Under the pieces are notes generated by a model. It ran no database searches and was not told the DNA's origin. It worked only from the letters and a program-made list of their open reading frames with translations. Positions 3,220 through 59,461 of a stretch of DNA of 59,850 nt are shown one piece after another. Within the stretch, counting starts at the first letter, position 1. Each line of letters opens with the position of its first letter. Both the position numbers and the translations under genes were made by a program. Origin of the DNA: an uncultured virus (IMG/VR IMGVR_UViG_3300036768_000388) (taxonomy: Duplodnaviria > Heunggongvirae > Uroviricota > Caudoviricetes); the IMG/VR virus record IMGVR_UViG_3300036768_000388, positions 1 to 59,850 of that record; one strand, written 5' to 3'.

Positions 3220-4929
3220 TCAACCATGACAAGATAAGCACTCATCCCCTGTTTTATTTTTAGGTCCCTCTTCTGCTTGTCTAGTTCCAGCATCAGCTTT
3301 AAGAACAGATGATGAGCGACAATAATATAATGTTTTAACACCAAGTCTCCACGCTTCCATATGAACTTCATTGAACCATTTAGGGTCAACGTTAACTGGG
3401 AAGAATAGATTTAAACTCTGAGCCTGATCGATAAACTTTTGTCTCTGCGCGGCTTGCTGTATAAGCGCCATCTGGTTTATCTCTCTAGCTGTTAAGAATA
3501 CTCTCTTCTCTTGCTCTGTGAGGAACTTAAGATGTTGTACGCTTCCACCATTACCCACTACAGTTTTCCAAACTTCAGATGTATCTTGACCTTTGGCTTT
3601 TAGTAATGCTTCAAATGTTGGATTCTTAACTAAGAAAACACCTTTAGCTGTTTTATCTGCATAAGCGTTAGCTGGGATTGGCTCTATACCATAGCTAACT
3701 TCTCCACTAATGATAGAGTTAGAGCGAGTAGGAGCTATAGCCATGAGATGTGTATGTCTCATACCAGTACCAGAACACCACTCAGGTTCACCATGCGACC
3801 TAGCCATTTCCTGCGATGCAAGAACGGCCTTATCTCTGATCGTTTTAAATAGTAAGGCGTTTAATTGCATTGCACTAAATGATTCAAATGGGATCATTTG
3901 AGATTGCAATAGCGTATGCCATCCAAGAACACCGATACCAATAGCTCTTGATTTTTCTGCAAATCTAACAGATCTTTCAAAACCGGGTAAGTTTTTAGCT
4001 TTAGATATGAACTCAGAAACAACGCCATCTAAGAAATATACTGCAAGCTGCGGAAGGTCTGTATCTTTCCACTCATCCCATTTAGCTGCGTTTAGTGATG
4101 ATAAGCAGCAAACAAAGCTATGCTCATCATCTGTATGTAATGTGATCTCGCTGCAGATGTTAGTCATCTCAACTTTAAGGTTGTTCTTAATATACGCTTC
4201 AGGGTTAGCTCTATTAACCGTATCTTCAAACAGTAAGTATGGTTCACCTGTCTCTAATCTTGTCTTAAGGATCTCGATCCACAGCTTTCTAGCCTCTGCA
4301 TCCTTATTCTCAACCTTCTTCATGAAGCTGTCAGAGATGATTACACAGTGGTTTATATTAAGACATTGTCTATTGACGTCCCCAACTTGTCTACGAATAC
4401 GTAAGAATTCATTTATATCTAAGTGGTCTACGTGTAAGTTAACAGAACTAGCACCACGTCTAACGTTACCTTGTGATGTTGCTATAGTAGCTGAGTCAAA
4501 CACTTTAGCCCAAGGGATAACTCCCTCAGACTTACCGTTCTTACCTTCTCTAATTAAGGCGCCACGACCTCTAACTCTAGATAAACCTATACCAACACCA
4601 CCACCATGCTTTGATAACATAGCCATCTCATGTACAGATTTATATATACCATCTACTGAATCTGGAACTGCAAGACCAAAGCAAGATATTGGTAAACCAC
4701 GATCTGTTCCTAAGTTTGCAGCCACAGGTGTGGCAGGACAAAGCCAGTTTTTAGCCATAGCTTCATAAAACTTATCTTCTAAATCTAATCTAGATATTTG
4801 ACTAGCAGCAGCTTTAGCAACTCTGCGATACATGTCAAATACATTTTCACCCTCTAATAAATAACCATTTTTTAAAGTTTTTAAACCGGCTTCTGTAAGC
4901 CACTCTGGATAATCAATACCTCTAATCAT
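3220..4929 (-). CDS. nrdA: class I ribonucleotide reductase alpha subunit, short form without ATP cone
   Basis: PATP, ISCF, GGGVG, TNICSEI, APTxS, LYY and C-terminal CLSC motifs; likely start ATG 4929. Confidence 0.96.
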   Translation of the reverse strand: MIRGIDYPEWLTEAGLKTLKNGYLLEGENVFDMYRRVAKAAASQISRLDLEDKFYEAMAKNWLCPATPVAANLGTDRGLPISCFGLAVPDSVDGIYKSVHEMAMLSKHGGGVGIGLSRVRGRGALIREGKNGKSEGVIPWAKVFDSATIATSQGNVRRGASSVNLHVDHLDINEFLRIRRQVGDVNRQCLNINHCVIISDSFMKKVENKDAEARKLWIEILKTRLETGEPYLLFEDTVNRANPEAYIKNNLKVEMTNICSEITLHTDDEHSFVCCLSSLNAAKWDEWKDTDLPQLAVYFLDGVVSEFISKAKNLPGFERSVRFAEKSRAIGIGVLGWHTLLQSQMIPFESFSAMQLNALLFKTIRDKAVLASQEMARSHGEPEWCSGTGMRHTHLMAIAPTRSNSIISGEVSYGIEPIPANAYADKTAKGVFLVKNPTFEALLKAKGQDTSEVWKTVVGNGGSVQHLKFLTEQEKRVFLTAREINQMALIQQAAQRQKFIDQAQSLNLFFPVNVDPKWFNEVHMEAWRLGVKTLYYCRSSSVLKADAGTRQAEEGPKNKTGDECLSCHG

Positions 4930-5896
4930 TAAAAACGCTCTCCTCGCTCCAGTCAACTACACCTTTAGAATAATCAGCAACACGTCCCGCAAAGAAGTCT
5001 TGATGCGCTTCGCCGACCGTCATGTAATCGAACCAATCTAATCTTGCGACAGCCTCTTTATCTAAGTTTGTCCAATTAGATTTTAACCCTAAATCATGTA
5101 ACTTAGTGTTTGCTCTATACTTAATGAATGCTTTTAAATCTTTAGGATCTAAGCCAAGAATTGGCTTTCCATCTTGGAAGACAGAATCAATAAACTGTTC
5201 TTCTAATTTTACTGCATCTCTTGCAGCTTGAAAAATAGATCTTTTAAGCTCATCGTCCCATATATCAGGGTTCTCCGCAATTAGTTGGCGAAATAACCAG
5301 CATCCAGCTTTAGAGTGTAAAGACTCATCTCTAACAGAGAAAGTAATTATCTCTCCAACGCCCTTCATCTTATTATGTCTAGAGTAATTCAATAAGATTG
5401 CGAAAGATGAAAATAACTGAACACCCTCTGCGAAACCACTAAATATGGCTAGAGATAAAGCTTTATCTATAATGCTCTTACCGTTAGTCTCTATAAGGTG
5501 ATCGATCTTAGCTTTTCCTGCAGGATCTTGTAGAAATGCGGCAAAATCATCTAGACCTAAAGTTTCATTTAGATATGCATAAGACTTAGTGTGTATTGTC
5601 TCCATATTGGCAAACGCAGCTGCCATCATTTGGATCTCTGGTTTCTTAAACCAATTATGTACTTTTCCAAGCCAGTAATCATTACCGACTACGATTTCAA
5701 CTTGCGTGAAGCTCTTTAAAACTCCACCAATTAGTTTCTTCTCTTCTTCTGTTAAGTTAGTGTTCCAATCAGTTAAGTCTCTAGCCATAGAGATTTCAGT
5801 ATGAAGCCAGTGAACTTGTTGCTGAGCAAGCCAGTATTCGTAAGCTTGAGGATACTCAAAAGGATAATAAACCAATCTAGGTTTTAGTAAACCCAT
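4922..5896 (-). CDS. nrdB: class I ribonucleotide reductase beta subunit
   Basis: di-metal motifs ETIH..SY and DESLH, EGVQLFSSF, C-terminal DFF..RVADY. Confidence 0.96.
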   Translation of the reverse strand: MGLLKPRLVYYPFEYPQAYEYWLAQQQVHWLHTEISMARDLTDWNTNLTEEEKKLIGGVLKSFTQVEIVVGNDYWLGKVHNWFKKPEIQMMAAAFANMETIHTKSYAYLNETLGLDDFAAFLQDPAGKAKIDHLIETNGKSIIDKALSLAIFSGFAEGVQLFSSFAILLNYSRHNKMKGVGEIITFSVRDESLHSKAGCWLFRQLIAENPDIWDDELKRSIFQAARDAVKLEEQFIDSVFQDGKPILGLDPKDLKAFIKYRANTKLHDLGLKSNWTNLDKEAVARLDWFDYMTVGEAHQDFFAGRVADYSKGVVDWSEESVFND

Positions 5897-6035
5897 CAGC
5901 TTTGCCCTCCCATTTAATTGTTGTTATTGGTCGATACATATTTTACAAAGGATTCTGTAAACCACATTCAAACTTATCTCCTAAGTTACTTTTGCAAATA
6001 TTGTAGAATTTATCTTAACACGTGAGGGAGTAGAA

Positions 6036-6716
6036 ATGCAAGGTAATGACTCAATTAAACAATTTGAATTAATTTCTTCGTCAAATAACTTAGTGGAATT
6101 AGTCTCAATTACCCCTAACTCTGAAGAAGTTATAACCTATTGCGCTAGAGTTAGTAATCCAAATAATCAACTTAATTTTAATAACGCAGATAAATTAATT
6201 AACTATCTGATAGTGAATAAACACTGGAGCCCATTTGAAATGGCTCACATGACTCTGCAAATTAAAACATCAAGAGCTATTGCACCTCAAATATTAAGAC
6301 ATAGATCTTTTACATTTCAAGAGTTTAGTCAACGCTATGCTGCAGTGAATGAATCTGGTCTAGTGATGTACCAAGCTCGGCGTCAAGATAACAAGAATCG
6401 CCAGAACTCAATAGATGACCTATCAGATGAAGTAAAGCAAGAGTGGCTAAAGCGCCAAGAAGAGAATTGGAAGCAATCATTTGAGCATTATACTTGGGCA
6501 CTTAACAATGGCATAGCTAAAGAATGCGCCAGATCTATCCTCCCTATTGGGACTGGTACAACTCTATATATGTCGGGATCTATAAGATCTTGGATTCATT
6601 ATATTGAATTGAGGTCTTCTAATGGTACTCAGAAAGAGCACATGGATATTGCTATTGCTTGTAAAGATATCTTTAAAAGAGAACTGCCGGCGATTGCGGC
6701 AGCTCTTGGTTGGTAA
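6036..6716 (+). CDS. thyX: FAD-dependent thymidylate synthase
   Basis: HWSPFE, QILRHRSFTFQEFSQRY, KECAR..LP motifs. Confidence 0.96.
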   Translation: MQGNDSIKQFELISSSNNLVELVSITPNSEEVITYCARVSNPNNQLNFNNADKLINYLIVNKHWSPFEMAHMTLQIKTSRAIAPQILRHRSFTFQEFSQRYAAVNESGLVMYQARRQDNKNRQNSIDDLSDEVKQEWLKRQEENWKQSFEHYTWALNNGIAKECARSILPIGTGTTLYMSGSIRSWIHYIELRSSNGTQKEHMDIAIACKDIFKRELPAIAAALGW

Positions 6717-6781
6717 TTATTTTGGGCTTGGCACGAACCATCTTCGTACGGCTATTTGCCAGGAGTTGGTCTATGTCATTC

Positions 6782-7045
6782 TTAACATCTTTTTTCAACT
6801 ATTTTCCACTGGCCATTTTCAGAACAAGTTAACTCTTCTTTAAGCATCTTGTCTGCTATCTTTTTCGGATCTGGCTTATACGTTCCCGCATCTATTTGTC
6901 TTTGGAGGTTTTTTATTTTAGCTTCTTTAACTTTTTCAGCGGGTATTCCGACAACGTTTGAGCTAGTAGGCAGAATCTTAGCTGACTTTTGTAACTCAGC
7001 TTTTGCTTCTTCCAGTGACTTAATTAACTGTTCGATAATGTTCAT
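6782..7045 (-). CDS. FlgM-like anti-sigma-28 domain protein with LxKS-containing leader
   Basis: KIKNLQRQIDAGTYKPDPKKIADKML matches the FlgM C-terminal helices; start ATG 7045 with GGAG RBS and TGGTAGAAT promoter. Confidence 0.75.
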   Translation of the reverse strand: MNIIEQLIKSLEEAKAELQKSAKILPTSSNVVGIPAEKVKEAKIKNLQRQIDAGTYKPDPKKIADKMLKEELTCSENGQWKIVEKRC

Positions 7046-7064
7046 GTATAACTCCAATAACTTT

Positions 7065-7073
7065 ATTCTACCA
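7065..7073 (-). promoter_or_regulatory. extended -10 promoter (TGGTAGAAT) of the FlgM-like gene
   Basis: TGnTAnAAT about 20 nt upstream of the ATG. Confidence 0.55.
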
Positions 7074-7123: not shown

Positions 7124-7798
7124 ATGGACGATGAAATGGTTATTAAACCGAATGAAATCTGGGTAACTAAGTTTGACGAAGACCATGCACAAAAGTTCCG
7201 TCAACAGGTCTTAGAATCTGCAAAAACTGATCCGAATAAGCCTGTAGTTATCTATATTGATTCTTACGGTGGGTACGTTGACGCACTAGCTAAGATGATC
7301 GAAACACTAGATGAAATCCCTAACCCAGTAGTAACTGTATGTATGGGTAAAGCTATGTCTTGTGGAGCTATTCTTTTATCACATGGAGACGTGCGATTTC
7401 TAGGTGCTAATAGTAGAGTTATGGTTCATGAGGTTAGTTCTGGAACTTACGGTGATGTGCACGATATGCACGCAGACGTAAAAGAAACAGTTAGGTTGAA
7501 TGAGCATTTTATGGGCTTGTTAGCACGCAACTGTGGATTCAAGAGCTATGCAGAGTTGCGGTCTGTTATTAAGGACCAAGATGGAAGGGATAGGTATCTC
7601 TTTGGCGAAGATGCTATTAAATTCGGTATCGTAGATGTTATTGGTTTACCAAAAGTTGTAGGTAGATTAAACTATGAAGTTTCTAAACAAGCTAAGAAAT
7701 TAGCTTTTGAACCTCGCAATAAGCAATCTATCAGAACATCTCAATCTTCTAAAAAGAAAGTTAAAACTAAAAAATCTGATACTAAAAAACAAAGATAA
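7124..7798 (+). other. clpP: ClpP-like protease (paralog 1)
   Basis: IYIDSYGG, GKAMSCG (Ser), VMVHE (His), RDRY (Asp), AIKFGIVD. Confidence 0.9.
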
Positions 7799-7811
7799 TA
7801 TAGGAGGAGTT

Positions 7812-8141
7812 GTGTCAGACCAACAAGAAAAATCTCAGTCAGAGATCGATAGAACAGTGGCAATCACAGCAGAAGATTGTAATGCTGCTTTAGATTTCTG
7901 GAGACATTTTAATATTCCTATTAGCACAGAGTTACAGAATGCAATGGATTCTTTCTCAAGAGACCCATCTTTTGAGAATCAACAGAAAGTTAAATTCTAC
8001 GTGTGTAAGGCTATTGTAGAAACAGACCACCCTGCTTTTAAAGATGAGATGTTCTCTAAGATCGCAGAAGAGTGTGAAAACGTTAGCTTCCACATGCAAT
8101 TTGATAACGAACTAGAGTCAATATTAACAGAAAAAGAATAA
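7812..8141 (+). CDS. hypothetical protein
   Basis: GGAGG RBS before GTG 7812. Confidence 0.7.
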   Translation: MSDQQEKSQSEIDRTVAITAEDCNAALDFWRHFNIPISTELQNAMDSFSRDPSFENQQKVKFYVCKAIVETDHPAFKDEMFSKIAEECENVSFHMQFDNELESILTEKE

Positions 8142-8223
8142 TTTCCGGTACTTATAGTGGAGGACACCTAGGTATCACTTAGCTACCTAAGTGATATAAT
8201 AAGTTAAACAAGGGGAAATTACT

Positions 8224-8814
8224 CTGTCTAAGAAACTTAAGCGCAGAATACAAGAGTTGTGTGGTTTTAACGAATTAACTGACCGTGACGAAAGGATTGA
8301 ACGTGCTTATCAAATTCTCAACAGTGCCGAATTAAAGCAAGCTATATGCCTAAAGATATTAGGCACTACATTTAAAGATGTAGAGAAAGCTATGGATGCT
8401 ATCCTAAAAGAGCGCCATATTCCAGAAGAAAAAATGGAAGAGCTTGAAGAGGACTTTATTCCAGAAAAGTTCGACCCTGAAGTTACATTTATCGCAAATA
8501 AGCAAGCTGCTAGTCCCATTAAGAATAGAGGCTACACAACCCTATCTAGGGAAGATGTTGCTAGGCTTATGGCAGCTTCAAAAGCTGAACCAAAAGGTAT
8601 TGATAACACTCACCCTAAAACTAACTATCCAACTCTTTCTAGAGAAGAGTGCGAGCGATTAGTAAGAGAGTATTTTGAGTACAAACAAAAAGAAATAGAA
8701 CGTAAAAGACAACAAGAAGCGCAAGAGGAGATTCCATGGGTTTCAACGAAGACGACAGAATCCGCTCCAAAAACAAAATCCAAAACGAAGCGTATAAAAT
8801 GTACGAAGGATTAA
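8224..8814 (+). CDS. hypothetical protein with two Y.TLSRE...RL repeats
   Basis: frame is open back to a CTG at 8224 behind a GGGG RBS; YTTLSREDVARL / YPTLSREECERL. Confidence 0.6.
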   Translation: MSKKLKRRIQELCGFNELTDRDERIERAYQILNSAELKQAICLKILGTTFKDVEKAMDAILKERHIPEEKMEELEEDFIPEKFDPEVTFIANKQAASPIKNRGYTTLSREDVARLMAASKAEPKGIDNTHPKTNYPTLSREECERLVREYFEYKQKEIERKRQQEAQEEIPWVSTKTTESAPKTKSKTKRIKCTKD

Positions 8815-8934
8815 GAGCTTTCGGCTATAGTAACGAATATATTATAAAATACACCGAATTTGCCTTATCGTCCTCATCAGACAATTTCCGAAACGAGGTT
8901 CTTCACAAGATGATAGATCTTGCTAGGAGCTTAG

Positions 8935-9732
8935 ATGAGAGCAATTCGAGCAATTCAAGCAATTAGTTTTATATGTCTTATAAGCCATATTTCTTTTGCT
9001 AAGCAAATTAAAGTGGCTGTAATAGATACAGGTATCAGTGAATCAATGTTGAAATCGCCAACTCTTTGTGAAACAGGGCATAAGACTTTCGCTGGTATGT
9101 CTATATTAGATAATAACAATCATGGAACACATGTATCATCCCTAATCGATCAGAATGCTAAAAACTTCTTTGTAGGTGTAGATGGTAGTGATGAAAAGCT
9201 TCAATCAATTAAGATAGATTATTGTCAAATAATCATTAAATTCTACGATCCTAAGTCAACATCTAATTCTTTAGAAAGCACTATTCAATCGTTTAATTAT
9301 GCAATTGAGCAGAAAGTTGACATCATAAATTATTCTGCTGGCGGACTTAAACCTTCAATTCGAGAAAAGAAAGCAGTTATTAAAGCATTAGATGCTGGAA
9401 TAATTGTAGTTGTTGCTGCAGGTAATGAGGGATCTGACTTGAATGAGAAAGGTTACTATCCAGCATTATATGACTCTCGCTTGATTGTGGTTGGTAACTT
9501 AGAAAAACCTAAGCAAATTGCTAAGTCATCTAACTTTGGTTCTAAAGTTACTTCCTGGGAAATAGGAACGAATGTGTTGGGTAAATTGAAAGATGGTTCA
9601 TACGGCATGTTGACTGGTACTTCGCAAGCAGCTGCTATAAAAACTGGAAAATTAATTCGACAAATGGTCTCAAAACAGAACCAGTTACCTAGTCTACGAG
9701 GTAAAATTAAGGCTATACCGATGGAGTTTTAA
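8935..9732 (+). CDS. subtilisin-like S8 serine protease, secreted
   Basis: signal peptide, VAVIDTG, HGTHV, AAGN, GTSQA. Confidence 0.9.
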   Translation: MRAIRAIQAISFICLISHISFAKQIKVAVIDTGISESMLKSPTLCETGHKTFAGMSILDNNNHGTHVSSLIDQNAKNFFVGVDGSDEKLQSIKIDYCQIIIKFYDPKSTSNSLESTIQSFNYAIEQKVDIINYSAGGLKPSIREKKAVIKALDAGIIVVVAAGNEGSDLNEKGYYPALYDSRLIVVGNLEKPKQIAKSSNFGSKVTSWEIGTNVLGKLKDGSYGMLTGTSQAAAIKTGKLIRQMVSKQNQLPSLRGKIKAIPMEF

Positions 9733-10586
9733 TGGGTAAATTAAAAAAGATATTTAGTGGGTTTATTGAAGTTATTAGTCACGTATTATCATTCTTAGCG
9801 ATGACTACATTAGTTTTTGTGAGTTTTATTACTCTAGTTTTTGCTGTAGCAAAAGCCCCAGAAATACATAGCTACCTATTACGTCATAAAGTCGGTGAAA
9901 AAGTATACAAGATAACAAACGATACGCATAAAGGTAGCGGTACTGGATTCGCTATCAAGGGAGATAGTGGGACAACATATATTGCCACAAACGATCATAT
10001 ATGTGAAATTTCATCAGATAAGCAACATATGATCTTAATTTCAAAAGATGGCGAAATTATTCGTAGAAGGATTATAGAGAGATCTGGTTATTCAGATCTA
10101 TGTTTAATCGAAGCCCCACCTGAGGTTGAAGGCTTAGATATGGGGAGTAAACCTAGCATTGGGCAGATCATTGCTTCTATAGGTCATCCAAATGGTTACG
10201 ATCAAACTCTCTCGCGTGGTGAGATCATCATGAGAGAGACAATAGCAATCCCAAAAGGACCAATTAGTCAAATACTTTCTGATGGTTCGGAGAAACTTGC
10301 TCCAGCTGAGTACGGCGGAATCTTAGAGCAAGATTGTCGCTTACCAAAGAATGAAATCGATGTTAAAGAGATAAACATGATGTTTATGGTTATCAAGATA
10401 AAGCAATGTATAAATGTTACTTATAGAGCATATATCACTAACATGCTAATTCAACCTGGTTCATCTGGGTCACCTGCAGTTAATTTCTGGGGTAACGTTG
10501 TAGGTGTAGTTTTTGCTACAGACTCTGCTGGTTGGGCATCTGTCGTATCTTACGACGATCTAAGAGATCTACTTAAAAAGTACTAA
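9732..10586 (+). CDS. trypsin-like serine protease with N-terminal membrane anchor
   Basis: GSGTGF, TNDHIC, DLCL, PGSSGSP. Confidence 0.9.
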   Translation: MGKLKKIFSGFIEVISHVLSFLAMTTLVFVSFITLVFAVAKAPEIHSYLLRHKVGEKVYKITNDTHKGSGTGFAIKGDSGTTYIATNDHICEISSDKQHMILISKDGEIIRRRIIERSGYSDLCLIEAPPEVEGLDMGSKPSIGQIIASIGHPNGYDQTLSRGEIIMRETIAIPKGPISQILSDGSEKLAPAEYGGILEQDCRLPKNEIDVKEINMMFMVIKIKQCINVTYRAYITNMLIQPGSSGSPAVNFWGNVVGVVFATDSAGWASVVSYDDLRDLLKKY

Positions 10587-21153: not shown

Positions 21154-22344
21154 ATGGAAAAACGAAAGATTTACTTAGTAAGTGGTATATCTGGCTCAGG
21201 GAAGAGCTGGGTATGCTCGCAATTAACAGACAAAGCTATATATATCGATGCTGATTCACTCTCAGTTGAAGATGCCATAGATTTTATGGTTAAAAATAAA
21301 GGTCCATTTTTGTATGATTTACACAAACCTGTGTCAACCTTTATAAGGAAGAACAGCGATATTTTTGATATTTGTTTAGTAGTGATACTAGGTGATTACT
21401 TAGAAATTAAAAGCAACTTAAAAAAAAGAAACCCTGCTTGGACTTATAGCGTTGGCATGAAAACTAGATGGAACAGAATGCACAATTTATCAAAGCACGT
21501 TAAAGCAGTATTTAGTGGGTCAGCAAGAGACGTCCTTAAATTCTTAAAAAGAGATTTAGACGATCGAGTTCATAAAATATATAAAGCCACTTCACCGAGT
21601 GGAAAGGTTTACATAGGTAAAACATCAATGGAATTATCACAAAGAATAGCCAGTCATAAATATGACGCCTTTAAACGTCAAAGACCGTGGGCATTCAGCG
21701 CTGCACTAAGAAAGTATGGTGATCAAATTACATGGGAAATACTAGTAGACAACATTCAGTCCTCCAAAGAGATCTCCTTCTTAGAAAAGAAATATATTAA
21801 GGAGTATCAATCCACTAACCCTAATTATGGGTACAATTTAACGTTCGGTGGAGATGGAGGTGGTCGCTTAATAGGAGAGTTTGCTCTAAAAAAGTCTAAT
21901 AATCTAAAAAAATACTATGCCTCAGATAGAGGACAACAGATGAAAGAGCATTTGCGCAATACATCACTCGCAATGCGCAGCACTAATATTAATAATACTA
22001 TTAATGAAAAAGTTAAGCAAAAAAGATCATCTATAGAGTCAAGAAAAAAGACATCAGAAGCCAATAAAAAACTTTACTCAGATCCAGCAATGCGAGAAAA
22101 AATGTCTCAAATTAATAAGGCTTCATATAGTGATTTAGAAGTTAAACGAAAAGTTGCTTTAGCAGTTCGCGCAGCTAGAGCGAAAAAATTTGATGTTTTT
22201 AAATTAGATGGTACATATGTTGGGCAATGGGATAGCGCTTCGACTTGTGCAGAAGACCTTAATATCTCAAGAAACGGAATATCGAATTGCCTTCATGGTA
22301 GGCAGCAAACAGTTGGCGGTTTTAAAGTTAAATATGTTTATTAA
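21154..22344 (+). mobile_element. free-standing GIY-YIG homing endonuclease with N-terminal P-loop kinase domain and C-terminal NUMOD1-like HTH
   Basis: GISGSGKS; KIY..10..YIG, R, E, GYN; FKLDG..V..W.S...A......I..C..G. Confidence 0.82.
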
Positions 22345-46882: not shown

Positions 46883-48082
46883 TTAATAACCTGACGAACC
46901 ATCGTCACGGTCAGTAATCTTTATACTATTCCAATAAGCTATCTCATCCTCTTCAGATGCGAAACGTTGGCTAATTGGCTTAGTAGCTTCCACTAACCAA
47001 TTATTAATACAATTATTCCATTGGTTTTCTGCCTTTTTAGCCATCTCTTCGTTAACAACTAAGTGACCAAACATTTGCTCGTCAGTTGGTTGTGGTGGGG
47101 GAGGGGCCATCATAGTTTGAACTACTGGGTGAGCATCTTTACCAAGCATTTGCTTACTCATCATTAAGTTGGCTAACTGATTAGCCGCAGCCAATTCACC
47201 AGAATGTGCCGTAGCTTTAGCCAATCTAAGTATCTCTTCTTCTGCAGAAGGTATTTGATTATGGCTTACCCAAGCTGTTTTAGTGAGGCCTCGCTTTTTA
47301 TTCTCTTCTGCAATCTCTTCTGGAGACCAGATTTTAACAGGTTGCTTCTTATTAGCAGCACGTTGAATTCTTGCCGTTAAGTCTGCAGACTGCTTTGCAC
47401 TCATTTGCCCTGGTTTAGAGCTATAAGACTTCACATTAACATTTGGTCCGACACCACGAGTTTCACCAGTATTGTTCATTTTTCTTCTAGCATTATCTGC
47501 AAGAGAATATTGCCCTGCACCTTTAGGACCATAGTTTGACTTATTTACACAAGTGTCGCAATCCTCTTCTCCGCAGTCGCACTCTTCTTTTTTCATACCA
47601 GTTAATCCACCATAACCAACTTCACTAAGCAGTTTATTAGGACCACCTGTAAGGGTTTTAGGTCCAGTTTGAGGTTCTGGTGCAACTGGAGCAGTATTTG
47701 TGGGTGTCGCTGGTTTCTGATTTTGAGGATTTTTCATTTGATCTATAGTGATAGGTTGAAGACCTAATTCAGCTCTTCTTCTATTTCTATCAACTAACTT
47801 AGATTTAGCTCTTTGCTCCCAAAGCATCTTAGTGTGCGCATCAGCTTTATTTAAGCCAGAAATATCCTCTAAAGATTTAATAAGTTTATCGGCTAGATCG
47901 TTAGCTTTATCTTTAGGCTTATAGAAGTATCTAGTCGATAAAGTACTTTTCTTTAAATCTTCTACTAGACCTTTAGATGAGAAGCTTTTAGTTAACTGTT
48001 GAACCATCTCTATGGGAGTTTGAGGTGGGATAATTACTTCAACTTCATCTTCACTAATTTGTGTAAATTGTATCCTACTCAT
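46883..48082 (-). CDS. putative internal head protein
   Basis: many [LMV]xK[SA]-type sites; low complexity. Confidence 0.55.
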   Translation of the reverse strand: MSRIQFTQISEDEVEVIIPPQTPIEMVQQLTKSFSSKGLVEDLKKSTLSTRYFYKPKDKANDLADKLIKSLEDISGLNKADAHTKMLWEQRAKSKLVDRNRRRAELGLQPITIDQMKNPQNQKPATPTNTAPVAPEPQTGPKTLTGGPNKLLSEVGYGGLTGMKKEECDCGEEDCDTCVNKSNYGPKGAGQYSLADNARRKMNNTGETRGVGPNVNVKSYSSKPGQMSAKQSADLTARIQRAANKKQPVKIWSPEEIAEENKKRGLTKTAWVSHNQIPSAEEEILRLAKATAHSGELAAANQLANLMMSKQMLGKDAHPVVQTMMAPPPPQPTDEQMFGHLVVNEEMAKKAENQWNNCINNWLVEATKPISQRFASEEDEIAYWNSIKITDRDDGSSGY

Positions 48083-57288: not shown

Positions 57289-58740
57289 TCATTTTCCAAC
57301 GTTCTCTAAGAGACAGTTGAAGCGTGGTGTGTATACGAATAATGCTCCGTACATAACAATCGCGAACTCAAGAGCCGTAGTAACGATAGCAAAGTTGATC
57401 TTAGAGAGTGGAGCTAATTGCTTGAACTTCATGCACTCAGCAGACATATCAAGTAAGAAAGCCTCACCAAGACCAGCTTGTTTACGACCAGCTAAACGGT
57501 AAATAGTATTACCTTGATTAGCAAAGTTACCAACAAACTTCTCAGAACCAACAGCACCACCAGCAGCTGACATGTACACTTTAATGTACTTAACGCCAGC
57601 AGGCATTCCAGAAACTGTCAAGTCAATGTTTTGACCAGCAGTAATAGTTGCAGCAGCAGCTTGAACTGGGATAGATTCGCCAGCATCATTAACAAGAGTA
57701 ACTTTAATTTGGTATGTACCAGCTGCTAAAGCTGATCCAGAACCTGCACCTGCAGAAGCGATAGCTAATGCACCTGGTTGTGGAGCGAGTGCGCTAACTG
57801 CAAGAGCTCTAGCACCAGCACGTGGTCTCAAGAACAAGTTTGGTTTGAAATCGATTTTACCAGCAGTTGTAGTCATGCTTGATACATCATAACCAACAGT
57901 TTGGCCAGATAAACCAGGAGCAGAGCGGAACTGAGGGTAGAATTGCTTAACGAAAGCTGATAAAGCAGCTGGCTCGATGTGCAATTCAGAAGGAGAACCG
58001 AAGTTCTCAAGAGCGATAACCGCAAGACGCTCAATATCGTCTTGAGCGATCACTTGACCACCAAGATCTTGAGCGATAGATTGAGCATCGCCGTAACCTT
58101 CGAAGTCACCAGCACGCATTAATACGTCTGTGTCACCCTTTTTAAGTTGTTTTAAGATACCAGACATTGCAATGCTGTTTGAAGGGAGAGAAGCATCTGA
58201 TCCATCGTTAGCACCGTCAAGACGGTTTAAGAAATGAGCATGTCCCCAGTACATTTCGCGCTCAACATTTTTTAAAAGGTGCATAGTACCTTCTTTAGCT
58301 TGTTGTGCAACGATGTCGCCGACAGTAGTTCTAACCAAAGTCATTTGGTGAGAAACTTTACGACGAGTTCCGAAGAACACGATCTTTTGACCGTCACGCA
58401 CGTAAGTTGAATCTTCTTCGATAGGTGCTCCACCTTCGCCGATATATGGAGCTGAATCAGATCCATAAGAGATCAAGCGATTGTATTGCTCGAAAAGATT
58501 GTAAGCTTTATCAACAGATATAGCTGGCCACATCTTCAAGTTCTTCATGTCAAAAGTAACACTTTTTAATGTTGCTTCTAACGACTCAGCTTGAAGGACA
58601 CCACCATAAGTAAGGTCCGTTGGTTTTCCTGCACCGCCGTACCCAGCAGTGATGGCTTTATTTAAGTTCTCAACGTCAGTTTGTGACACGAGACCTTGAT
58701 CTAGCCCCTGTAGAATTTGATTAACTGCATCAGTCATCAT
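57289..58740 (-). CDS. major capsid protein, A511/K/SPO1-like, with an Ig-like insertion
   Basis: NK-AITAGYG leader, GG.L..ESL...L...T, EGG....DS.Y.R, QLAPL.K, YGAL...P; RBS spacing favours ATG 58740. Confidence 0.88.
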   Translation of the reverse strand: MMTDAVNQILQGLDQGLVSQTDVENLNKAITAGYGGAGKPTDLTYGGVLQAESLEATLKSVTFDMKNLKMWPAISVDKAYNLFEQYNRLISYGSDSAPYIGEGGAPIEEDSTYVRDGQKIVFFGTRRKVSHQMTLVRTTVGDIVAQQAKEGTMHLLKNVEREMYWGHAHFLNRLDGANDGSDASLPSNSIAMSGILKQLKKGDTDVLMRAGDFEGYGDAQSIAQDLGGQVIAQDDIERLAVIALENFGSPSELHIEPAALSAFVKQFYPQFRSAPGLSGQTVGYDVSSMTTTAGKIDFKPNLFLRPRAGARALAVSALAPQPGALAIASAGAGSGSALAAGTYQIKVTLVNDAGESIPVQAAAATITAGQNIDLTVSGMPAGVKYIKVYMSAAGGAVGSEKFVGNFANQGNTIYRLAGRKQAGLGEAFLLDMSAECMKFKQLAPLSKINFAIVTTALEFAIVMYGALFVYTPRFNCLLENVGK

Positions 58741-58759
58741 TTTTCGCATTCTCCTTTGA

Positions 58760-59461
58760 TTACGAAATCTCGTATTTTTTAATAATTTGTTCTAAGTTTT
58801 GGCCCATTTCAGCTTTGATAACATCATCAGAGCTTACTTTAATACCAGACTTTTTAAGTTCAATCAACTTGTTTGCAACTTGTGCTTTAGAAAGAGGCTC
58901 AGCAGCACCTTCATCAGCTGATTTAAACAGCGGAGCAGTTCTTGCAGAAATTCCCTTAGGAGCTACAGGTTGATCTGCAATCTTATTGACTAAGTCAAGG
59001 ATTGTAGATAATTTATCTTCCAGAGGTCTAACACGTTCTTCAACGTAAGACTTCATTAAAGACTCTGATTCATCATAAGATTTTTTAAGTTCAGCCTTGT
59101 GCATATCAAGAAGTTTTTGTGCAATCTTCTTTTCTTTTTCTTCATGCTCAGGGTCATCTTTATGAGGCTCATCTTCGTCCTCATCTTTTTTATCTTCTTT
59201 TTTATCCATGCAGTCAGCTTTAGTGGCTTCATTTTTGCCCTTTTTAGCTTCGTCCATGTCTTCTTTTTCGTCTTCGTCTTTTTCGTCGTCTGCTTTTTTA
59301 GCATGAAGATCACCATCAGAAGGTTTTCCGTCGATACCATCGCCCGGACCTTCGATCTTAATCTCAGTAGCAGCAAAACGAGACTTACGTAACTCGTCCA
59401 ATTCTTGAAGAGTTTCGTCGATTAAATCTGTTAAGCTTTTAGTTAGTTTTGCGTCCATCAT
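58760..59461 (-). CDS. scaffold protein
   Basis: charged coiled coil directly upstream of MCP, with at least six LxK[SA] sites. Confidence 0.7.
   Translation of the reverse strand: MMDAKLTKSLTDLIDETLQELDELRKSRFAATEIKIEGPGDGIDGKPSDGDLHAKKADDEKDEDEKEDMDEAKKGKNEATKADCMDKKEDKKDEDEDEPHKDDPEHEEKEKKIAQKLLDMHKAELKKSYDESESLMKSYVEERVRPLEDKLSTILDLVNKIADQPVAPKGISARTAPLFKSADEGAAEPLSKAQVANKLIELKKSGIKVSSDDVIKAEMGQNLEQIIKKYEIS

Follow-up and report, generated by a model that had tools for sequence, protein, structure and literature searches.

The flagellar type III export signal of bacterial FlgM resides in the disordered N-terminal region of the protein. Phages have small regulators of their own that act on host sigma factors: T4 AsiA is an early anti-sigma-70 protein whose target is region 4 of the primary sigma, which it remodels so that MotA-dependent transcription can follow. 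The internal proteins IPI-III of T4 are a different class of small phage protein; they carry an N-terminal capsid-targeting sequence that is common to several prohead proteins and is removed by the head protease. To our knowledge, the phage anti-sigma factors described so far are unrelated to the anti-sigma families of their hosts. Our literature searches turned up no account of a FlgM homologue in a phage, and PHROGs has no family for the FlgM-like protein studied here. A relative of this protein has received the automatic label "anti-sigma28 factor" from one metagenome annotation pipeline. There is also a precedent for phages that turn down host flagellin: the TldR repressors, reported to be RNA-guided DNA-binding derivatives of TnpB, have this effect in temperate phages (PMC13418256; bioRxiv 10.1101/2025.07.22.666180).

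Here we describe a domain of the FlgM family in a phage setting, where it is both trimmed and extended. The protein, P0001, is a minimal FlgM-type domain: it consists of a first helix, a variable loop and a C-terminal helix-loop-helix, to which an extra beta-hairpin is added.

The stretch of DNA that was analysed, from here on the window, takes up a whole IMG/VR virus record; its 59,850 bases represent about 34% of the genome according to the completeness estimate. The major capsid protein has a match in PHROG 752 and shares about 31% identity with the capsids of SPO1-like Bacillus phages. Other genes include nrdA/nrdB, thyX, a ClpP-like protease and two further secreted or membrane proteases. 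The G+C of the window is 33-40%, and no tRNA genes were detected in it.

The relatives of the window are uncultured phage contigs of about 147-179 kb, and one of these records, with 174,974 bases, is rated 100% complete. When P0001, a region-4-like protein of the relatives and P0112, a conserved core protein, were compared by tblastn with 50,697 GenBank phage records, no match was obtained; the phage clade has no cultured representative among these records. The region-4-like protein is 134 aa long, combines a zinc-cysteine part with a part that resembles sigma-70 region 4, and has its gene next to that of the head protease in relatives. The flgM-like family comprises at least 109 proteins from uncultured phages of about 150-180 kb.

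The features of the flgM-like locus are, in order of position:

6036..6716, plus strand: thyX, convergent with the flgM-like gene (Pfam Thy1, E 1.1e-46)
6684..6702, no strand assigned: GC-rich hairpin within the thyX 3' end, some 80 nt past the flgM-like stop codon, called on the plus strand
6782..7045, minus strand: coding sequence of the FlgM-domain protein P0001, 87 aa, stop codon included in the coordinates (Pfam FlgM; start as in the relatives)
6785..6835, minus strand: C-terminal module, residues 71-87 (ELTCSENGQWKIVEKRC), predicted beta-hairpin (AF2 strands 70-74 and 80-84, pLDDT about 60)
6836..6940, minus strand: FlgM helix-loop-helix core, residues 36-70 (KVKEAKIKNLQRQIDAGTYKPDPKKIADKMLKE; Pfam match 34-69, AF2 helices 36-53 and 60-69)
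6941..6976, minus strand: variable linker, residues 24-35, with predicted disorder (residues 25-32 have a pLDDT below 50)
6977..7042, minus strand: N-terminal helix, residues 2-23 (IIEQLIKSLEEAKAELQK), with conserved residues (AF2 helix, pLDDT about 85-90)
7052..7055, minus strand: GGAG resembling a Shine-Dalgarno sequence, with 6 nt between it and the ATG (GAGG in the same place in the relative L002)
7065..7073, minus strand: extended -10-like TGGTAGAAT, a consensus match of putative function with no convincing -35
7124..7798, plus strand: ClpP-like serine protease, divergent from the flgM-like gene (Pfam CLP_protease, E 2e-28; PHROG 'head maturation protease', E 3.6e-27)

The gene starts at ATG 7045-7043, ends at TAA 6784-6782 and has a product of 87 aa. 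For the same open reading frame an alternative frame of 140 aa, beginning at a TTG, is also listed. This longer frame is an over-extension, as the original prediction had it, because all 36 aligned relatives begin at the Met that is equivalent to ATG 7045.

The expression signals that had been named upstream of this ATG, GGAG and TGGTAGAAT, can both be read in the sequence. A strong Shine-Dalgarno sequence is present in 40 of the 75 ORFs of the window, and in the closest relative (L002) TGGTAAAAT is retained upstream of the gene together with the Shine-Dalgarno sequence. Because a good -35 is absent, the flgM-like gene received no promoter call in a simple sigma-70 scan. Over the whole window TGNTANAAT is not enriched, with 15 occurrences against 19.95 expected; in intergenic DNA it is about five times denser (0.81 vs 0.17 per kb), on small numbers (6 and 9 sites). 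Past the stop codon, the GC-rich hairpin is followed by TTCTCTTTT when read on the minus strand, and it is a possible terminator for the convergent pair of thyX and the flgM-like gene.

The ORF layout agrees with the proposal of a lone minus-strand unit that diverges from a clpP-like gene: the distance is 78 bp to the divergent ClpP-like gene and 65 bp to the convergent thyX. P0001 is not encoded within a flagellar regulon; its gene is surrounded by nrdAB, thyX, ClpP-like and ligase genes, and the capsid gene is far away. The order thyX, flgM-like, clpP-like of the window is kept in the two records in which we read the locus, L002 and L006, one of 146.7 kb and the other the complete genome of 175 kb. 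In the complete genome, homing-endonuclease-like genes are inserted in the locus.

That a phage gene carries a genuine FlgM-type core was borne out by a profile search. P0001 scores 40 bits against the Pfam FlgM model PF04316 (cut-off 25, E 4.7e-10), with residues 34-69 aligned to positions 22-55 of the 55 in the profile. The score against TIGR03824, the NCBIfam equivalog model for FlgM, is 35.1 bits and thus under the cut-off of 40.75, so P0001 should not be named a FlgM equivalent.

In a word-indexed search, 52 of 100 candidates qualified as homologues at E <= 0.01, and all 52 have a precomputed FlgM domain. An exhaustive HMMER scan of 1.84 billion representatives returned 68 proteins at E <= 0.001, including 33 at E <= 1e-10. 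Two of the 68, the Sushi-repeat protein P0067 and P0108, match only by the C..GQW hairpin; these are chance matches and were left out before the counts over 109 proteins were made. The FlgM core is found in 108 of the 109 relatives. When a profile of 37 family members was compared with the PDB, the top two hits were FlgM structures, 9wsf_B and 1rp3_B, at weak E-values (0.037 and 0.075).

For comparison we used a canonical FlgM of 98 aa (L013), which scores 73 bits with Pfam over residues 37-91 and is encoded beside fliW, csrA and a flagellin-family gene. Residues 12-72 of P0001 and residues 35-94 of this protein are collinear, with 36% identity over 61 residues and one gap; the 30-residue core of one relative reaches 53% identity. 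The pattern I..G.Y..D...IA..M, which had been proposed as a check, is conserved in an alignment of 37 rows: Y56, I63 and A64 are invariant, while I51, G54, D59 and M67 are at least 90% conserved. The end of the core at MLKE also agrees with the original prediction.

A 2026 paper presents the crystal structure of the sigma28-FlgM complex of Pseudomonas aeruginosa and names seven hydrophobic contacts of FlgM with sigma region 4 (PMC12784957). The first helix contributes V77, I80 and I84, and the C-terminal helix contributes V96, A97, L100 and L101. In order, they map to I44, L47, I51, I63, A64, M67 and L68 of P0001, and all seven positions are hydrophobic. The mapping was done via the family-profile/structure alignment, with a chain numbering that is offset by two and was verified against P70. 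Among the 37 sequences, I63 and A64 are invariant and L47, I51 and M67 reach at least 90% conservation, while positions 44 and 68 (I44 and L68) are taken by different hydrophobic residues.

The AlphaFold model of P0001 has a pLDDT of 71.8 and consists of a helix at residues 2-23, a disordered loop, helices at 36-53 and 60-69, and a hairpin at 70-84. Foldseek found no match to this model in the PDB at E <= 0.001, and the FlgM chain 1sc5_B is at rank 15 with E 6.9. In a fold scan of 48,161 chains that is independent of Foldseek, two FlgM chains take ranks 3 and 6 with Z-values of 3.3 and 3.1, which are not significant on their own, and no chain reaches a Z of 5.

P0001 is without the disordered N-terminal region of FlgM: its alignment with FlgM begins at residue 12, and its first 23 residues are a confidently predicted helix. 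In canonical FlgM 36 residues precede the FlgM domain, compared with about 11 in P0001, so that about 25 are missing. The N-terminus had been described as swapped; it is shortened instead, since the protein is collinear with canonical FlgM and most of the stretch before the domain is missing.

The N-terminal helix is well conserved. In the 37-row alignment L18 never varies, and conservation is 90% or more at I4, L7, I8, K9, L11, K15 and K20; 92 of the 109 relatives have the motif of this helix in their first 20 residues. There are ten relatives with a short linker. In nine of these the Pfam FlgM match starts at residue 8-14 and extends from profile position 5-11 to position 54-55 of 55; in the tenth it is limited to profile positions 27-55. 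The start of these matches indicates that the second half of the N-terminal helix is the FlgM domain's own first helix. P0001 carries an insertion of 12-15 residues after this first helix.

Two motifs, LIKS and LQKS, had been singled out in this helix as parts of a leader. The first holds up, as L7, I8 and K9 are at least 90% conserved, but the second does not, since the position after EL.K is variable. Among the 88 of 109 proteins that have the EL.K pattern, the residue that follows it is N in 49, A in 19, D in 6, S in 5, G in 5, T in 3 and P in 1. In the same 88 proteins no cleavage motif is conserved at this site, and the proposed cleavage between K20 and S21 is unproven.

The linker that follows differs widely in length and in sequence between relatives. 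The C-terminal segment had been taken for a short ENGQW tail. It does follow the core, but it is a conserved module with a predicted hairpin rather than a mere tail: conservation in the 37-row alignment is at least 90% for C74, S75, N77, G78, Q79 and W80, and a motif of the NGQW type occurs in 106 of the 109 relatives. The motif is found after the core in 89 relatives and before it in 22, and 11 have more than one copy. No known family accounts for the CSxNGQW hairpin and the module has no counterpart in FlgM. A weak match to the Sushi family was dismissed as due to chance.

In general the flgM-like family is hypervariable and mosaic. The longer relatives are chains of short conserved modules that come in variable order, with disordered charged stretches between them. 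Some of these modules are shared with two other proteins of the window:

46883..48082, minus strand: P0112, a conserved core protein that has 212 homologues or more and no family assignment
58760..59461, minus strand: P0233, an acidic helical protein and putative scaffold, directly upstream of the major capsid gene

Because it is encoded directly upstream of the capsid gene, P0233 is probably the scaffold, an assignment made solely from position and composition. Its EPHKDDP..LDMHK module recurs in 11 of the 109 FlgM-like relatives (BLAST E <= 0.002, best 2.7e-11). When the flgM-like family was compared with P0233 by hhalign, the probability was 0.6%. Seven of the 109 relatives have a module of P0112, SNYGPKGxGQY..KKQPVK, fused to their FlgM-like unit (best E 1.6e-26). 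One relative carries a DUF6321 domain, on which we found no papers in the literature.

P0112 was also considered as a second FlgM-like protein, after a BLAST hint at E 0.013, and was rejected: hhalign gives 5-15% on a helix of 13-14 residues only. None of 23 members of its family matches Pfam FlgM at E <= 5. The N-terminal domain of P0112 has a generic alpha/beta fold (Z <= 5.8), and the protein Atlas gave no lead.

A further link to head proteins is seen in two contigs, L012 (4.8 kb, binned with a Deltaproteobacteria genome) and G003 (a viral record of 86.9 kb). Here the FlgM core is located near the C-terminus of a protein of 533-661 aa whose N-terminal domain resembles a head maturation protease, and a long disordered stretch lies between the two. 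In G003 the fusion gene is divergent and placed beside scaffold-like and capsid genes. The protease scan covered the L012 protein, which matches phrog_1028 weakly, at E 0.0065. A homologue of the L012 protein in the closest relative (G001) has a protease match at E 3.5e-11, but it is without the FlgM core. The FlgM match in the protease fusion scores 22.7 bits, which is under the Pfam cut-off.

Further, six-frame segments of the window, 28,165 aa in all, contain the pattern L[ITM]K[SA]L[ETQ] only three times: once each in P0001, in P0112 and close to the N-terminus of P0233. This pattern is post hoc, as it was defined from the same three proteins, and it is a lead and not a test. In profile comparison the shared motif has a low probability. 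The NGQW and N-helix motifs do not form a common tag on the head proteins of the complete 175-kb relative. Taken together, the sharing of modules and the protease fusions are an indirect and unexpected support for a link with head proteins, and the capsid targeting of P0001 that had been proposed is unproven.

A flagellated host, which the original prediction implied, is not established. The contig of the closest relative falls in a metagenome bin labelled Cytophagales, phage binning being weak evidence of a host. This bin, whose completeness is unstated, gave no match to flagellin and contains no FlgM besides that of the phage. Such a host would offer no flagellar target. The ribosome-binding sites and -10-like motifs of the window are not Bacteroidota-like in appearance, and the Bacteroidota -7 motif TAnnTTTG shows no intergenic enrichment in it (1.35 vs 1.08 per kb).

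Our preferred reading, which we hold tentatively and rate as quite possible, if a little short of probable, is that P0001 is a cytoplasmic, non-exportable anti-sigma factor directed against a FliA-type sigma of the host. The infected cell would produce the protein, presumably early, under a sigma-70-type promoter of its own that lies in the nucleotide-metabolism/replication region of the genome. It would be retained in the cytoplasm, presumably with no secretion, and it may clamp region 4 of a FliA/sigma-28-type (group 3) sigma in the way that FlgM does. The sigma factor would be sequestered irreversibly; late flagellar and motility transcription would then be shut off, and the host would be unable to relieve the block by secretion. 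With flagellin and the late motility genes stopped, resources might be saved or the cell surface changed.

In favour of the anti-sigma reading we count the contact residues, the Pfam score, the FlgM domains of the 52 homologues, the FlgM structures among the profile and fold hits, the full-length domain matches of the short-linker relatives and the collinearity with canonical FlgM. We also count the location among nrdAB, thyX, ClpP-like and ligase genes, the conserved locus and the -10-like motif that the nearest relative retains. We count against it the conserved hairpin that FlgM does not have, the sub-cut-off score with TIGR03824, the null result of Foldseek, the Cytophagales bin of the nearest relative and a promoter known from its consensus only. 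The modules shared with the scaffold and the protease fusions are not expected of a purely cytoplasmic regulator. These last observations would be natural for a prohead- or virion-associated protein, packaged with the scaffold-related proteins, perhaps processed by a head protease, and possibly delivered ready-made into the next cell to act there as an anti-sigma factor. This comes close to the capsid targeting of the original prediction, on new grounds; we consider it unlikely. The P0233 module in the 11 relatives, the fusions in the independent contigs L012 and G003, the post hoc motif common to P0233, P0112 and P0001 and the hypervariable, mosaic nature of the family all speak for it. However, the gene is about 50 kb from the head genes, alone behind a -10 of sigma-70 type and with neighbours of early/middle type. 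The overlap of the N-terminal helix with the FlgM domain explains its conservation without a targeting role, no cleavage motif is conserved after K20, and the complete relative has no common head tag. In addition, the protease match of L012 is weak, and the firmer homologue in G001 lacks the FlgM core. In a variant that we regard as very unlikely, the non-secretable FlgM domain would be removed into assembling heads, and would thereby couple head assembly to transcription or be injected as a pre-made anti-sigma factor. Uptake into the head could go via the modules common with the scaffold, and in sister phages via the fusion to the head protease. The coupling would have a parallel in bacteria, where the export of FlgM is coupled to completion of the hook.

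Equally unlikely, in our view, is another partner for the helix-loop-helix: it could be region 4 of the host's primary or another alternative sigma, with an action like that of T4 AsiA, or the 134-aa region-4-like phage protein, in which case P0001 might time late transcription. G001 and G002 do encode such a protein, of 134-135 aa, whose sigma70_r4-like HTH scores 22.8 and 18.8 bits (cut-off 24.1). Its conservation is extreme: it belongs to 504 proteins found at E <= 0.001, the best 120 of which are listed at 75-88% identity, many with a precomputed PF04545. No sigma region 2 was found in five phage records. A host that is possibly non-flagellated would need a non-flagellar target. A complex prediction with the flgM-like family alignment and the region-4-like protein gave a score of 0.00, which speaks neither for nor against binding. 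What makes this explanation doubtful is that the seven conserved contacts are those used on sigma-28 and that it is FlgM in particular that the sequence resembles. The window lacks the region-4-like gene; in relatives this gene and the flgM-like gene are not neighbours, and it could equally encode an ordinary late activator. It is least likely of all, and in our view hardly probable, that the resemblance to FlgM comes with no sigma role, a lysine-rich helix-loop-helix having been co-opted as a generic protein- or DNA-binding peptide among shuffled, disordered modules. This would fit a match that spans just about 35-50 residues, structure searches that are not significant and a family made of short modules in varying order. 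It fits poorly with 40 bits against a curated Pfam model, with the identity to canonical FlgM over the 61 aligned residues and the 30-residue core, and with a core that is the one element present in 108 of the 109 relatives.

The reading of P0001 as a non-exportable anti-sigma factor can be tested directly, by binding to FliA, by loss of motility and by the lack of secretion. If it is true, a widespread clade of large uncultured phages reuses a captured and trimmed host regulator in a form that the host cannot dispose of. The protein is then also a possible clue to the host of an abundant group of uncultured phages. Further, the mosaic modules that recur in scaffold-like, core and protease-fusion proteins could show how disordered phage proteins are assembled from parts.

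Compared with the known systems, P0001 shares some properties with each and differs from all of them. TldR is the precedent for acting on flagellin, whereas P0001 would target the sigma factor itself. With the T4 internal proteins IPI-III the family has in common that its members are small and hypervariable, with a constant N-terminal segment, and that modules are common with head proteins. In contrast to IPI-III, the N-terminal helix of P0001 overlaps a known domain, and no cleavage motif is common to the family. Like T4 AsiA, P0001 would by analogy act on region 4 of a host sigma, although the two have no sequence relationship and no co-activator is evident for P0001.

The closest resemblance is to bacterial FlgM (PF04316), known from the structures 1RP3 and 1SC5 of Aquifex aeolicus and 9WSF of Pseudomonas aeruginosa. 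P0001 has the same C-terminal domain, keeps the seven contacts with sigma region 4, is of similar size and aligns collinearly. It differs in being phage-encoded, outside any flagellar operon, and in its shorter N-terminus, where about 25 of the 36 residues ahead of the domain are gone. In return, P0001 has gained the CSxNGQW hairpin and variable insertions, and its relatives have acquired fusions such as the one with DUF6321.

The flgM-like gene lies beside a run of three consecutive protease genes in the window:

7124-10586, plus strand: ClpP-like, subtilisin-like S8 and trypsin-like proteases

The ClpP-like protease has a lysine-rich tail, and its Ser/His/Asp motifs are visible in the sequence. 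The subtilisin-like S8 protease carries a hydrophobic segment at its N-terminus, and the N-terminus of the trypsin-like protease is hydrophobic as well. The same set of three is found in L002, the locus of the nearest relative.

Conserved gene neighbourhoods are broken up by homing-endonuclease-like genes, which in the complete relative G002 are found on both sides of the flgM-like gene:

window 21154-22344: homing-endonuclease-like ORF, confirmed by a PHROGs match
L006 (G002) 5118-5591 and 6406-7002: homing-endonuclease-like ORFs, recognised by eye

Another window protein, P0112, belongs to the conserved core of the phage clade, is without family assignment and has at least 212 homologues:

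window 46883-48082, minus strand: P0112

Its N-domain is small and of alpha/beta type, and its C-domain is helical; it also contains a disordered proline-rich stretch, the SNYGPKG..KKQPVK module and, in some members of the family, a CxC..CxxC cluster.

In G002 an NGQW-type module (MEYLALSANGQWSLHK) is found at the start of an ORF without the FlgM core:

G002 162155-162448 (within L040), minus strand: 97-aa ORF

The gene call is uncertain, as the region is crowded with overlapping ORFs.

The 146.7-kb contig of the phage clade that contains L011 and L002 has been deposited inside a Cytophagales metagenome-assembled genome, where it could mislead analyses of the host or the gene content of that bin.

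In the two relatives G001 and G002, outside the window, the gene for a region-4-like protein immediately precedes that for the head-maturation protease:

L024 (G001) 2002-2406 and L010 (G002) 1414-1821: region-4-like protein of 134-135 aa

Four conserved cysteines and a histidine are followed by a sigma-70 region-4-like helix-turn-helix. The protein is extremely conserved: 504 proteins are found at E <= 0.001, and the best 120 of these 504 show 75-88% identity. It possibly acts as a late transcription factor.

Two head-maturation-protease-like proteins, each from a different further contig, have a FlgM-type helix-loop-helix near the C-terminus, preceded in the viral record G003 by a cysteine cluster:

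L004 (G003) 4441-6426: protease-FlgM fusion
L012 668-2269: protease-FlgM fusion
L012 2336-3853: TROVE/Ro60-like protein with a vWA domain, adjoining the fusion gene

The TROVE/Ro60-like gene sits on a short contig from a Deltaproteobacteria genome bin.

A separate observation concerns the capsid protein, whose N-terminal region KAITAGYGGAGKPTD..GGVLQAESLE (window 58500-58749, minus strand) reappears near the C-terminus of the G001 head protease (L024 2433-4088), where the counterpart reads KAMTAGYGGAASPTS..GAVIQSESLE. An analogous pair, KALEAGS..GAAL, is present in G003. The repeat may mark a shared site of maturation cleavage or docking.
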